In this document: piece after piece, positions 21,001-27,000 of the stretch
How the letters are laid out: every line of letters begins with the position of its first letter
Position numbering within the stretch: position 1 is the stretch's first letter
Assembly (NCBI GenBank): GCA_030834985.1
Contig: JAUQWV010000006.1
Span: 12,168-76,167 of the forward strand
From: Candidatus Dojkabacteria bacterium
GTDB lineage: Bacteria; Patescibacteriota; Dojkabacteria; J137
Reading direction: 5' to 3'
DNA: 64,000 nt
Position numbers: made by a program

Positions 21001-24000
21001 TAACAACAAAGTTTTCAGGCATAGCATCAAGTTTTATCTCGCTTAAATCTTTAAACATAGTTACCATGTTTTCTTCTGTAAATCCGCTACCGACTTTTCC
21101 GATACTGTAATATTTATCATCTTTAGGGTTGTATACGGCCGTGAGCAGAGCGCCAAATCCAAATCTTGAACGATCTCCGCGGCCGATATAATAACCAATT
21201 ATTGCAACATCAATTGTATCTACTAAATCAGACCTTGTATTAGCTTTTAGTTTGATCCATTTAAAATTTCTAGTTCCAGGTTCATAATTAGTACCTGTTC
21301 CTTTTGTGATAATACCTTCTAAGCCAGATTCAACTTTTTCTTTAAAATAACTTTCAAGCTCTTCTTCAGACTCCATCTGCTTGGTTTCTAGAAATTTTAA
21401 ACCTACTGTTTTAACTGACATTGCCATTTTTAATGCTTCCAACCGTTCTTCAATAGGTTTTGAAGTTAAATCCTGACCGTTCAAATATAAACAATCAAAA
21501 CACATTGCTTTAACAGGAATACTTACAGAGAATTCTTCAATTCCATACTTTCGTTTACGCTTCATTGTATCTTGAAAGTTACTGTATAGATCTGTTTGTT
21601 CGTTATATCCAATAATCTCAGAATCCAAAATTATTGAATCTACACCAAGATTTTTTACTGCTTCTATAATCTCAGGATATTGTGCTGTCATATTTTCCAT
21701 ATTCCTGCTGTAAATCTCTACAATGCCAGCTGCTTTATCAAAATGTATCTGACCACGTAGACCATCTAACTTAGGCTGAACAAAACAGTTCGGCATCCGT
21801 TTCCATACAGCAGCACTTGTAGCTTCACGCTCTACAAGTTTAGATGCTACAGGAGTTCCTGGTTTTAACTTAATATGTGTTAATGCTTCCTCAATATCTG
21901 TAAATTTTCTATCTACCAGGATTTTTGCTAGTTCTCCGATATCAGCTCTATAGCCAAATGCAGTATCTAATTGGACTCTTAAAGATTTATCACCTTTGAT
22001 AGCCCAGGACATTGCATCTAAAAGAGTTTTTTCGGACATACCCAGTCTTAGTGCGCCTACAATTATTCTAGAAATATATTTAGCGCTTAAAGGGTCGCAG
22101 GATAAAACTAAATTCAAAAATGTTGTCATTTTCTTTTCCTGCGACCCTGCACCAGACGCAGTAGCAATTTCTTCTAATTTTTCAAAAACATCGTGAACAG
22201 ATAAATCTTTAATAGAATAGGTATACGTAATTAAGTCCATATTTTGCCTACTCCTAGAAAATTTGTCCCAATTTTTTAAAATATCTGCAACCATTAAGCC
22301 GGCATCGCCTAACTTTTTGTAACTTGTCACAACAATAGATTCTTCAATTGCCAAACTTAGTGACTTAATAATAAGCTTAAGTGAAAAATTAAACTCCAAA
22401 GGAATATACTTAGGAGCTAAGCGGCCTTGCAGCAGGTACATTGCCGGCTTAACATCTTCTGAATTTAAAGACCTTAAAAATTCTGCAGTCTTTATAGTCA
22501 TATCAGTTCGGCCAGAAATACCCTCTAGCTCCGAAAGAAATTGTGCAAAAGTTTGGAAATTCATTTAGTTGTCCTAATTAAACTGATCCTTCCGGCAAAA
22601 TATCTAGAACATTTACGCCGATTATTCTTAATATTAGCACGCTAAATACCAAAACAGCTATACCTGTTAAAGTAGCAATCAGCTGAGTGCGGGCTTCCTT
22701 TATCTTTTCAGTATTACCCATTTGATAAAGTAATCCTACATATATCATTTGGAGTAGGGCAACACCACCCATTACACCTAAAGCGATCCTAATTAGTCCG
22801 GTAATAATGCCTGTAGGAGTAGGGTCAATACACCCAATAGCAGTGTAAATTCCTCCTGTTTCAAAACATTGTCTATAAAGATCTGCATTATCACCTTCTT
22901 CTAAAAGATATCCTTGGGTAATATCATCAGTCCCGATTAAAGTTTCTTCTCTATATAAAGTAGGTGAGGATGCATCACAAAAACGGACCTTATTATTGGC
23001 AGAATTTTCACTATCAGTAATTACCGCTATAGGGTCACCATTTGAAAAACATCTATCACAATTTAAACCTGTTGAGCTACTATATAATGCAGGACTTATT
23101 ATAGAATCTTTATTTTCTGGATCAGTAATAGCACATGCAGTATTTTGAGGGCATATCTTGGAAGATCCCCCTGCTGCACCGGTACCGGTATTTTGTGCAA
23201 CAGCCAAACCTGGATAATCTGGGCCTAAACCTAAACCGAACTGAGGTTTGGGTAACCCTTCTTCTGACGGATTATTAACTTTAGTACTCCAGCCAGAGCC
23301 TGTGTCTCTAACTCCTATAATTATATTAGCGTTCTGAGCCATAGCAGATAATGCTTGTTCAAAGGTACCATAAGTACCATTATGCTGTCCTGAATTATTT
23401 GGAATTATTACATCGCCCCCTTTCTTACATCCACCGTCATCAAAATCAGAATCCCATTCATCAAATCCGCTTCCTCGGCAGCAGACACCAGCCTGCAATC
23501 CTTGTCCTCCAGTCATAAATTGACCTAAGTTGCTTGATATATTTACAAATTGAAAGCCAACCGGACAACAACCTTGTAGTTTAATAGTTGAATCAGCAAA
23601 TATATTATCAGCACCGTAAATTGTGTTACGCCCTTCCTGAGCAGTCCAGCCTGCAGGGCATACTCTAGGGATAGCTCTATAGCTTCCTAAGCTTTCAACT
23701 GACGGCAAATTTTCATTCGCAGAACCACTTGCTTCTGATTCAGTCATCCATCGCAATACAAAATTATTATAGTTTTCTCTAATACAAATAGACCTGCTAT
23801 CAGCTGAAGGATTGTTAATATCACCTCCGTATCTAGCAATTATTGATCGTGATAACTTATCTCCATTCAATCGATTAGAATACCTTCCTCTAGAACTATT
23901 ACTCATTTGCAGTAAATTAGTACTACCAGTAGGGCAAGAAGCGAAATTAACTACACAGTTAATTCCTGGTCTAAAGTCCACGCGTTCTTCAGCACATAGT

Positions 24001-27000
24001 GTATCTAAAAAAACATTTTGCAAAGGAACAAAAAAGAATAAGATCGGAATTATCGCGATTATAAATTTGGATTTTCTAATCATTAGAGTATGAATAATAT
24101 ATTAATGACTTTACTCAAATAATTAAACTGAACCTTCTGGCAAGATATCTAAAATATTTACACCTAATATTCTTAATATTAATACGCTAAATACCAGTAA
24201 TGCTATTCCTGTTAAAGTAGCAATTAGCTGATCGCGAGCACCTTTTATCTTCTCAGTATTTCCCATTTGATAAAGCAGTCCTACATATATCATTTGGAGT
24301 AGAGCAACACCACCCATTACGCCTAAGGCAATCCTAATTAATCCAGTAATAATGCCTGTAGGAGTAGGGTCAATACAACCTATTGCTGTATAAATACCTC
24401 CTGTTTCAAAACATTGACGGTAGAGTTCCGCATTCTCACCTTCTTCCAGAAGATATCCTTGGGTGATATCACTAGTGCCAAGTAGTTCCTCTTTTCGATA
24501 ATAAGGTGCTGCTGCCTGACAGAATACTACCTGTCTTTTATTACCATTCATAGGTCCTGCATCTTCTATCAACATTGCTTCCCCATCTACATAACATCTC
24601 CTACATGATTTTGTTTCATTCGCAGGATCTCGCAAAGCATCACCTTGCAATATATCAAACTCATTTCCACCACTTGCAATTGTTGAACCTTCAACTAACG
24701 CACAATCAAAGTCTCCTGTGTTGCCACACACTTTAGGAGCTCCAGTTGCTGCAACAAATTCTGCAAATGCAAAATCATAAGTATCTGTTAAATAAGTTCC
24801 TAAGCCAGCTCCTCTTATCATATTTCCGGGATCTCCTTCTACATTACTACTTGCAATTTCAGTAGGGACAGTCTGACCAGTTCTAGGATTTGTAGCCGTT
24901 GACCTTCCCCAAATTGAATTACCATTACCATCAACACATCTACTTCCTGCGGCATTTCTAGGTTCCCAATAATTAGAATTACTACCACTTGCAGGATTTA
25001 AACAACAACCTGACATAGCTCCTGCACCTTGTCCATCGTTTATAGCAGCCCATGGAGATACTTGATCTTTAGCTGCACGGTATGAATACCCAATCGGACA
25101 ACAACCCCAAATAGACCAAGATCTATCTGTTGACTGTGATGGGTGATAATCAAACATACACGCTCTTGCCCACACCGCTACATTCGTCCCACTATTTCCA
25201 GAAAGCCCTAAGGATTCTAAATCATACGATTGATCCCAACCTTTATGTTCAAGCCTTGCAATAATTCCATTTATACCGTTTGTACCATCAGATTTTCTAT
25301 AGCATAAGCCAACAGATCTTTCTTCTGACCACGAATTAACAAATCTAGAAGTAACTCCTTGAAGAGGGAAAGACCAATTAGCACCTAAGGCTCCTGTGGC
25401 ACTAACTCCGTGAAAAGGAATAGTACCTGATTCTAAATCCTCTAAAAAGTTTCCAAATCCAGAACCGGCAGCAGTTTCGCAATCGCTATAATTACTTGCA
25501 CATGCACCGCCATATCCTGCCAACTGAGCTTTAACATTAGATGGTAAATTTGCGCTTGCACCTGCAATTATTACAGCTAAAGATGTGAGTATAAATATTA
25601 ATTTAATTTTGAAATGTTTCATCATATAAATACTATTCTAATCTTTTTAGTGCATCTACAAATATTGTAAAGCTTGCCTGTCTTCCATCTTCTAAAACAG
25701 CTCTCCCTTTAAAAATAAAGATTGGCATTACAAAACCATTCCAGTTATCTGGCTCGTAAAATCCCAAAGTAGTTCTTGTTGCATCTGCAATGAAGCTTCT
25801 TACTGATAAGTTCTCGTAGGTTTCTAAAGGATTCCCGTTTTCCGGCAAAAGGTTAACTAAAAAGCCATTACCAGATTGAGCTTTATTCCAAGCTTCCCGT
25901 AAATCAATAATAGGGTAAACACCTTTTGTAACACCTCTTGTAGCATATTCATAATCCGTAAATTGAAGGCTAAATACATCACGAGGATAGTCCGACAAAT
26001 TGTTGCCTATGATTACACGTAGTGAGCCATTCCTGGGATCGCTTTTATAAACAATACCTTCAACTGCTGCAGGAATAGCATTTAAAACATTTGTATCTGT
26101 TGTAATCCGCCCCAATTCTTCACGAGTTTTTACATCTGCTAATCTAAGCCTTCTGTAAACTTCCAAAAATACAAATCTGGCCTGGATATCACGCTCAGGC
26201 TTAAAGAAAGCGCCAGCATTATTTAAATCAGCAGGTACATATTCTACATAAGGACTCTGAAGCCCAGCATTATTCGAGAAACCTAGACGATTAACTAAAG
26301 CACCAGCAGAATTGATATATGAAGTTAAATTAGTATTCAATGTACCTAGCGTCTTTACGTTTATATTATTAAACCAGTCTGTAGTTAAATCCCATTGTTG
26401 AGTAGTTTTATTAAATTTTAATGTTTTTGTTCCTTCAGATGCTACCCATGTATATTCATCACCATCGTAAGTACACCTATCTGCAACTGCACTGAAGTTT
26501 GGTAATTCTTGTACAGGAATGCATTGGCTTTTAAATCCTAAAACAGCTGCTGTTTTTACAGCATCTTCAATTGTTGTTAGTCTTTCTCGAGGCTGTTCAA
26601 TCTTGTATACGTATGCAGTATCTGGAAAACCAGCAACAAGTGCATTACTTAATCTATCAATAGAATAATTAGGCGTTACTGCCGGATTAGTTTTGATCGC
26701 ATAGATAGTAACTCTTGGAACATTCTGCAATGCTAAGTCAGGATCTTTATAATAACTGAACTGTGGGCTACTACCGGTAGACGGTCTATTAAATAATTGG
26801 GACACTGATTCCCATGCAATTACAAGAATTGCAAAAATTAAAAAAGCCAAAAGGGCTTTTCTTGCATTTGAAGCTGTTTCAAATAGAGTAGCCATATATT
26901 ATCTACATTCTTAAGTCTAATACTTATTATAGATTATCATTTAATATCTTTCATTGCATTCAAAAATAGTTTAAACTTTTGTTATGTCTAACCAAAATTA

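Follow-up and report, generated by a model that had tools for sequence, protein, structure and literature searches.

The stretch analysed here, 64,000 nucleotides of contig JAUQWV010000006.1 (an ultra-small Candidatus Dojkabacteria bacterium of the Patescibacteria; hereafter the window), is AT-rich chromosomal DNA carrying housekeeping genes. Two adjacent open reading frames (ORFs) on its minus strand, genes A and B, specify proteins of about 500 amino acids, each composed of a signal peptide, a cysteine-rich ectodomain and a C-terminal two-helix membrane module for which profile comparisons point to the T4SS_pilin family PF18895 (T4SS, type IV secretion system). The parts of the two genes, all on the minus strand, are the following.

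22578..24083, gene A, ORF of 501 amino acids
23991-24083, gene A signal peptide, residues 1-31
22926-23990, gene A Cys-rich ectodomain, residues 32-386, with 17 Cys
23202..23939, gene A variable lobe, residues ~49-294, mapped from the segment that cannot be aligned between loci L005 and L007 (see below)
22581-22925, gene A T4SS_pilin-like hairpin module, residues 387-501
22623..22817, gene A helical hairpin, residues 423-455 and 458-487, equivalent to those of B, from hydropathy and the modelled B hairpin, to which it is 94% identical
22581-22610, extreme C-terminus of A with the conserved tail
24123..25625, gene B, ORF of 500 amino acids
25527-25625, gene B signal peptide, residues 1-33
24471-25526, gene B Cys-rich ectodomain, residues 34-385, with 16 Cys
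24777..25484, gene B variable lobe, residues ~48-283, mapped in the same way; these are the family's least conserved columns (mean pairwise identity 0.11-0.33)
24126-24470, gene B T4SS_pilin-like hairpin module, residues 386-500
24168..24362, gene B helical hairpin: transmembrane helix 1 (TM1), residues 422-454, basic loop, and TM2, residues 457-486, from DSSP on the AlphaFold2 model and hydropathy
24126-24155, extreme C-terminus of B with the conserved tail

A first-pass annotation of the sequence had described A and B as tandem paralogues with a shared Cys framework, strongly diverged ectodomains and nearly identical ends, and this description was borne out. BLASTP aligned A164-501 with B167-500 at 47% identity (E 3e-82); upstream of residues ~164-167 the two proteins can be aligned only by their Cys framework, which is common to the whole family. 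The last 115 amino acids are 93.9% identical and the DNA is 86-87% identical across the last ~300-345 nucleotides, as against 22-27% amino acid identity in the ectodomains. A tblastn search and a hidden Markov model (HMM) scan of the 64-kb window detected the module twice, in A and B, and nowhere else; homologues of the module are numerous in other genomes. The annotation had also considered that the repeat might be an artefactual duplication of the assembly. Beyond the presence of a ~87%-identical direct repeat of 300 nucleotides, nothing favours this idea: 13-14% of positions are different between the copies, for the most part synonymously, tandem pairs occur in other species too, and the same pair with the same neighbours was assembled independently in at least five sequencing runs. 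Since the two anchors (the C-terminal modules) are separated by 37.5 synonymous differences, in addition to 10.5 non-synonymous ones, and since independent assemblies agree, an artefact was ruled out, its probability being practically nil.

Hydropathy analysis and AlphaFold2 modelling concurred in the layout proposed at the outset, a secreted Cys-rich ectodomain followed by a two-helix membrane module. The model of the gene B product (pLDDT 78.8, pTM 0.67) has helices at residues 3-25, 422-454 and 457-486: a signal-type helix at the N-terminus and a C-terminal helical hairpin, with a beta-rich ectodomain of ~350 amino acids between them. Among 35 homologues, 11 Cys columns are invariant and three more nearly so, and an Ala following the signal helix is nearly invariant as well; signal peptidase is predicted to cleave after this residue (A31 in A, A33 in B). 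The loop of the B hairpin is basic (NTEKIKGARDQ) and its flanks are acidic, a pattern that fits an out-in-out hairpin with the ectodomain outside the cell. Directly before TM1 lies a conserved, Cys-flanked junction motif, C...GGIYTAIGC-DP, and the last residues after TM2 are kept as (L/I)PxG(S/T)(V/I/F) throughout the A/B family. PF18895 proteins end in PGFG after TM2. The C-terminal tail may serve in processing or recognition. The ectodomains gave no usable match in Pfam or NCBIfam. A search of PDB sequences with the module profile returned nothing at E<=10, and Foldseek found no match at E<=1e-3 in either the PDB or viral structures.

Identification of the module rests on profile comparisons. 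The sole Pfam signal in A and B is PF18895, at 15.8 and 13.7 bits, both below the gathering threshold of 26.6 bits; the match covers residues 425-486 of A (E 0.015) and 424-485 of B, corresponding to profile positions 7-69 of 71. The same sub-threshold match recurs in register in 27 of 35 family members (best E 3.8e-4, all below threshold). Used against a database of 5.8 billion proteins, the module profile retrieved proteins annotated as PF18895 at E values of 2.6e-17 to 1e-4. Aligning the module with an alignment of PF18895-annotated proteins by hhalign gave 99.7% probability (E 1.7e-26, 41% identity over 86 columns), and an HMM built from PF18895-annotated proteins only matched A and B at ~1e-22 (A: E 1.8e-22). 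The recurrence of the sub-threshold match, together with the three profile results, makes the homology to PF18895 firm. By these measures the module, whose family had not been recognised in the first-pass annotation, is a divergent branch of the very large Patescibacteria family of "VirB2-like" pilins, for which tandem divergent arrays have been published. The likeness to VirB2/TrbC-type pilins noted from topology was thus apt as regards the kind of protein, not as regards the family named: the Pfam scan gave no match of A or B to PF04956 (TrbC/VirB2) at E<=1, and hhalign against seven annotated plasmid VirB2/TrbC proteins was insignificant (probability 1.4-1.5%). Although the latter alignment is in register through the segment before TM1, TM1, the loop and TM2, such register reflects architecture and is not evidence of homology. 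A link to genuine VirB2/TrbC was therefore rejected as undetectable at the sequence level. Across the family, the hairpin has a mean pairwise identity of 0.60-0.84 and keeps certain R, G, N and D residues invariant, whereas the ectodomain averages 0.11-0.34. A closely conserved anchor is thus no peculiarity of the A/B pair.

Full-length homologues of A and B number 52, all unannotated, and those with a named source all come from Candidatus Dojkabacteria. The module is far more widespread. When its profile was searched exhaustively, 7043 cluster representatives matched at E<=1e-3, of which 3054 also reached E<=1e-10. The best 150 of these 7043 matches have it as the C-terminal part of proteins between 64 and 773 amino acids long, and most of these closest 150 relatives are 300-770 amino acids long, compared with 500-501 for A and B. 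In species-representative genomes it was found in Dojkabacteria, Microgenomates/Roizmanbacteria, Komeilibacteria and Parcubacteria, and in the first two groups it terminates proteins of ~250-760 amino acids. Remoter matches fall within ORFs that are very large (2057 and 2115 amino acids) or small (132 amino acids). No Pfam domains were found in the long relatives. From this distribution, the module reads as a portable C-terminal unit carried by N-terminal parts of very different size and sequence. A small pilin from another Dojkabacteria genome (P0180) may be a fragment, and its genomic context is uninformative. The ectodomain of gene A is of a type that has orthologues in other species (57% identity to P0006, 41% to P0007); that of gene B shares no more than 26% identity with any homologue from another species.

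The two halves of these proteins have had separate histories. Within the window genome, A and B are 22% identical in the ectodomain and 94% identical in the anchor, whereas A shares with P0006 and P0007, both from other species, the ectodomain identities just given and anchor identities of 83% and 84%, respectively. The proportion of synonymous differences (pS) in the anchor is 0.45 between A and B and 0.62-0.78 to every other species, a gap that we estimate at ~3-6 binomial standard errors (84 synonymous sites). In neighbour-joining trees, anchors pair by genome and ectodomains by type, both for the window pair and for the pair at L016; L018 repeats the pairing of anchors by genome. The A-type gene is second in the window and first in L016. 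The incongruence of the anchor and ectodomain trees requires recombination, which could have taken the form of gene conversion, with one paralogue's anchor copied onto the other, or of a foreign ectodomain cassette brought in between conserved arms. The last exchange between A and B was not recent, as the anchors have a synonymous divergence (dS) of 0.68, reaching 1.19 in codons 387-420, with a ratio of non-synonymous to synonymous divergence (dN/dS) of 0.06. Judging from these substitution patterns, purifying selection throughout the family accounts for the greater part of the anchor identity. Hence, of the initial proposal that gene conversion had homogenised the anchors, recombination was retained and recent homogenisation was not.

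Purifying selection might also account for the near-identity of the anchors all by itself, with neither gene conversion nor recombination. The module is highly conserved in all homologues, the anchor dS values speak against recent homogenisation, and conserved residues are specified by identical codons to a similar extent in the anchor (68%) and in the ectodomain (57%). Yet such an explanation leaves unaccounted for the anchor pS between A and B, well below that to other species, the closer relationship of the A ectodomain to proteins of other species than to B, the pairing of anchors by genome in L016 and L018, and the exchange of cassettes visible between L005 and L007; we thus consider it unlikely.

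Replacement of an ectodomain cassette is directly visible in the comparison of two strains, L005 and L007. Flanking sequences are 96-97% identical, and nucleotides 145-833 of the gene (residues ~49-278; L005 8145-8833 vs L007 8145-8884) cannot be aligned; this segment maps to residues 49-294 of A and 48-283 of B. Each locus has a single pilin-module gene, and the encoded proteins, P0010 and P0012, have signal peptides that are identical as aligned and anchors with 100% amino acid identity. When the window was compared with its close relative L008, one edge of a divergent tract fell at ~23250, near residue 280 of A and close to the lobe junction.

The diversifying selection suggested by the first-pass annotation was not substantiated. 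Within-species alleles show dN/dS values of 0.07-0.09 in both ectodomains, indicative of purifying selection, and variation occurs by replacement of whole cassettes. Comparisons between ectodomain types are saturated (dS >1 or undefined), and positive selection was dropped as a candidate. Synonymous divergence among strains is 0.11-0.34 at the locus and 0.008 in the adjacent ligase gene. The gene B anchor (24126-24470) differs by 7.5% from the L008/L009 allele (dS 0.34, almost all differences synonymous); in the same strains the ligase is 99.7% and the gene A anchor 99.4% identical to the window. A second tract of ~1 kb, with ~4-5% divergence from L008 and L009 and almost identical flanks, lies inside uvrC (18000-19000). 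The strain mosaic is therefore not specific to the pilin locus; we read the elevated divergence as part of a general recombination mosaic, and its value as a locus-specific signal is weakened accordingly. A test of strain alleles for patches of recent conversion from A to B was uninformative: of 26 sites at which the B alleles differ, one allele agrees with A at 13 and the other at 10, leaving 3 at which neither does.

The surroundings of the pair comprise the following features.

25633..26895, minus strand, 420-amino-acid partner gene with an N-terminal TM helix, ending 7 nucleotides before gene B
26926..26954, minus strand, best sigma-70-like promoter match, 10/12 consensus positions (consensus match only)
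20756..22564, minus strand, ATP-dependent DNA ligase, 13 nucleotides downstream of A (Pfam DNA_ligase_A_N/M/C)
26984..30624, plus strand, membrane-anchored gene (497 amino acids) resembling solute-binding proteins (SBP; Pfam SBP_bac_8/SBP_bac_1) and a surface protein of the immunoglobulin (Ig)/cadherin type (715 amino acids; weak Cadherin, Big_13)
34369..36984, minus strand, polytopic membrane protein of 871 amino acids, candidate VirB6-like, ~10 kb from the pilin locus

On the minus strand the order is 420-aa gene, B, A, ligase, with gaps of 7, 39 and 13 nucleotides, and no terminator-like site was found on that strand between these genes. The 420-aa gene is probably in the same operon as gene B, and the promoter match upstream of it is a candidate for the start of an operon running from the 420-aa gene through B and A, possibly into the ligase gene. 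Synteny across Dojkabacteria consists of a ~420-aa membrane protein, one or two pilin-module genes and the ATP-dependent DNA ligase; all Dojkabacteria loci examined have the 420-aa partner directly upstream of the pilin-module gene or genes. Between species its sequence identity is 49-72%, falling to 37-40% for the most distant, and it is far better conserved than the ectodomains. No Pfam or NCBIfam match was obtained for this protein, and its AlphaFold2 model (pLDDT 54.8) was of too low a quality to be used in a fold search. In most species the locus contains a single pilin-module gene. Tandem pairs are present in the window species, in L016/L013 (501 + 476 amino acids) and in L018 (141 + 518 amino acids). 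In the last of these (2069-5230), a 141-aa pilin-only gene stands beside a 518-aa fusion with an unrelated, acidic, Cys-rich ectodomain; the hairpins of the two proteins are nearly identical to one another and end in ...ITSAGF(F/L). A ligase gene directly follows the module gene(s) also in Roizmanbacteria L044 (6288-8033), where the module is only ~38% identical. This adjacency may represent old synteny or a hint of a link between the apparatus and DNA handling. The SBP-like and Ig/cadherin-like genes of the window are transcribed divergently from the pilin locus, and their homologues adjoin that locus in other genomes.

Between the Ig-like and VirB6-like genes (30710-34367) are three conserved genes, syntenic in relatives; one encodes a membrane protein of 213 amino acids that is internally repetitive (IYILWLWG / VYILWLWG), the others a highly charged 343-aa protein and a 597-aa protein, and none of the three had a usable Pfam or NCBIfam match. 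Elsewhere in the window, a T-box leader (110 bits) at 40303-40507 precedes a 162-aa ORF and the alanyl-tRNA synthetase gene (41054-43069), and a class II ribonucleotide reductase of 1226 amino acids (11356-15036) matches its barrel domain in two stretches, with a TACO1/YebC_N-like insert at residues 305-368 and a C-terminal TSCPD domain, a pattern repeated in relatives.

Matches of the 871-aa protein to NCBIfam families of Mycoplasma integrative and conjugative element transmembrane proteins and of conjugal transfer proteins were weak (E values of 7e-4 and 7e-3) and stayed far short of the cut-off. Its homologue in L031, a protein of 670 amino acids that shares 40% identity with it (E 4e-66), lies beside a 797-aa ATPase with DUF87, TrwB_AAD_bind, AAA_10 and TraG-D_C matches, adjoining the partner and pilin-module genes. 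These matches make the 871-aa protein a candidate divergent VirB6; other than in L031, no direct tie of the locus to a T4SS was found in the genomes. A 429-aa protein with no assigned family also adjoins the 670-aa homologue in L031 (6345-12183). In published work, VirB2-like pilin arrays are widespread in Patescibacteria, with a pilin near virB4 in only 1135 of 1948 surveyed assemblies (PMC12102498), T4SS and pilin subunits are essential in Southlakia epibionticum (PMC10633639; PMC12857230), and PF18895 is abundant in freshwater bacteria within the Candidate Phyla Radiation (CPR; 10.1101/2025.04.23.650224).

With moderate confidence, we propose to regard the paralogues A and B, both encoded on the Dojkabacteria chromosome, as modular pilins, each joining a conserved T4SS_pilin assembly module to a swappable head. 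Both would be exported through a Sec-type signal peptide, with predicted cleavage after the conserved Ala (A31/A33). The beta-rich ectodomain of ~350 amino acids, which has no recognisable fold, would then fold outside the cell, presumably with ~8 disulfides, and stay attached by the PF18895 hairpin, in which TM1 would run from out to in and TM2 back out after the basic cytoplasmic loop, leaving the short conserved tail at the end. Because conservation of the hairpin far exceeds what a passive anchor needs, the hairpin may pack specifically, be it against other hairpins of its kind or against conserved machinery, for which the co-operonic 420-aa partner, the VirB6-like protein close by and a T4SS ATPase from another part of the genome come into consideration. 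By such packing the ectodomain would be displayed on a pilus-like structure or stalk that depends on a T4SS, or else at the tip or base of this structure. The distal lobe (residues ~48-290) could form the variable surface of an adhesin or host-recognition protein, host or surface recognition being what such large-headed pilins probably serve. Homologous recombination would swap the lobe as a cassette, with conserved arms provided by the signal peptide, by the stalk next to the membrane and by the hairpin; the hairpins of tandem copies would stay alike within a genome, and the pair would endow a lineage with two ectodomain types.

Several observations weigh against this proposal. Neither a VirB4/VirD4-like ORF nor, by HMM scan, a small "major" pilin of the PF18895-type family was found in the window; most syntenic loci have no VirB4/VirD4 gene beside them, and the link to a T4SS is drawn from a single relative, L031, together with weak matches of the VirB6-like kind. 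The hhalign comparison with VirB2/TrbC was insignificant, the searches with A and B found no sequence or fold match in the PDB, and pilus formation by PF18895 proteins is unproven in the literature. The purifying selection on ectodomain alleles and the mosaic tract in uvrC count on the same side. Finally, a conjugative-type pilus offers ~600-700 square angstroms of outer surface per subunit, and a compact head of ~38 kDa on every subunit would probably not fit in a homopolymer. The bulk of the head, the lack of a small pilin and the lack of a T4SS ATPase in the window speak less for a decorated homopolymer than for a short stalk or for a subunit that is minor or sits at the tip or base. A stronger version of the proposal, in which the hairpin is a true polymerisation module and builds a T4SS-dependent fibre or stalk with swappable, disulfide-rich ~38-kDa heads on all or some of its subunits, is put forward as a speculation that we rather doubt. 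If it were true, a monoderm would bear a decorated conjugative-type pilus whose head cassette sets the host cell to which the epibiont can attach, and many other Patescibacteria with module proteins of 300-2000 amino acids would probably build such fibres.

Alternatively, the hairpin could be a membrane anchor and nothing else, A and B being ordinary surface proteins, bitopic or anchored by the hairpin, such as receptors, adhesins or nutrient-capture proteins that neither polymerise nor depend on a T4SS and that would work with the neighbouring SBP-like and Ig-like proteins. The synteny with those surface proteins, the missing ATPase and small major pilin, the difficulty of fitting the head into a pilus and the undetectable similarity to genuine VirB2 would all be expected if this were so. 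Passive anchors, though, are not normally 60-84% identical with invariant Gly, Arg, Asn and Asp when the attached domain is ~25% identical; the module is homologous to a family of T4SS-linked pilin arrays (PMC12102498), pilin-only versions exist at the same locus, and the L031 locus lies beside a T4SS-type ATPase and a VirB6-like gene. Conservation of the hairpin, the pilin-only paralogues of the same locus and the essentiality of the Southlakia pilins favour specific assembly over a passive anchor, and we hold the anchor-only explanation to be less probable but still a substantial rival. Still another scenario would make the ectodomain a cleaved pro-region or cargo, so that the ~90-aa hairpin alone is incorporated as a conventional small pilin, by analogy to TraA, TrbC and VirB2, whose leaders are long and whose termini are processed. 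The junction motif before TM1 and the tail, LPxGS[VIF], are both possible processing sites, and pilin-only paralogues do exist. A well-predicted folded ectodomain with a conserved disulfide framework, under purifying selection, is nonetheless unexpected for a discarded leader, and the conserved cluster has no evident protease gene. This scenario therefore appears very improbable, and modular pilins remain our preferred interpretation.

The role of the essential T4SS and of the pilin arrays is an open question in Patescibacteria biology (PMC11665869, PMC12857230). Tandem divergent arrays of VirB2-like pilins in this group are already published (PMC12102498). What is new at the present locus is the large folded head on a pilin module, the conserved non-virB4 setting with a partner gene, and the separate histories of head and anchor with replacement of cassettes; a literature search found no paper on any of these. 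The locus presents the pilin module as portable, C-terminal and able to carry large, folded, strain-variable ectodomains. Together with the extreme constraint on the module and its tracking of the genome, this points to a role of these "pilins" in surface display and host recognition. Defined variable cassettes, the conserved 420-aa partner and the VirB6-like neighbour provide concrete objects for tests. As many proteins of this sort fall below the PF18895 threshold and escape annotation, published counts of CPR pilins are probably too low.

The closest known counterparts of A and B are the PF18895 "VirB2-like" arrays (Wang et al. 2023, PMC10633639; Quinonero-Coronel et al. 2025, PMC12102498), which have a homologous C-terminal two-helix module with the motif TAIGC...GG(I/V)AL...FSVLILRI(I/L)G(V/I)N(I/V)L in common. 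They too are found in the CPR as tandem, sequence-divergent paralogues with a Sec signal, and many of their members carry Cys-rich N-terminal extensions. A and B conform to such arrays in being at least two tandem divergent pilin genes (47% identity over the alignable two thirds, 22-27% in the ectodomain) and in having a signal peptide and a C-terminal hydrophobic hairpin by hydropathy and AlphaFold2. They depart from them in scoring below the Pfam threshold, with proteins of their type mostly falling under the cut-off of the published survey, and in their length of ~500 amino acids with a folded ~350-aa ectodomain, whereas the survey sought small pilins (PMC12102498). Moreover, the A/B locus consists of the 420-aa partner, pilin and DNA ligase genes and does not adjoin virB4, and, whereas published arrays diverge over the whole protein (mean 25% identity), here the head alone diverges and the anchors remain 94% identical.

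VirB2/TrbC pilins (PF04956, e.g. Agrobacterium VirB2) resemble A and B in having a signal peptide and a two-helix hairpin with a short basic loop. Mature pilins in F- and T-pilus structures have their N-terminus on the pilus exterior, so that an N-terminal head would point outwards. However, true VirB2/TrbC proteins are ~100-120 amino acids long with no ectodomain, the host of A and B is a monoderm, and the annotated virB2 genes that we retrieved adjoin virB1, virB3 or virB4, as opposed to a 420-aa gene and a DNA ligase gene. Modular type IV pilins of Gram-positive bacteria, such as PilB and PilC of Streptococcus sanguinis, follow the same concept: a conserved polymerisation module of the pilin is joined to a bulky functional or adhesive one, which appears on the filament in low copy. 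Their filament is unrelated, with a class III signal peptide and an N-terminal pilin module that bears its addition at the C-terminus, unlike the C-terminal, T4SS-type module of A and B. In Neisseria, pilin variation results from cassette recombination between pilE and pilS; by comparison, no silent cassette store was seen in the window, and the exchange observed in the present analysis is between strains or lineages and not a programmed event within one genome. Arrays of VirB2 paralogues in Bartonella and Anaplasma are variation systems as well, as they are cited in PMC12102498. With such systems of pilin and antigen variation, A and B have in common a conserved assembly part, a variable exposed part, tandem paralogues and cassettes lying between conserved arms.

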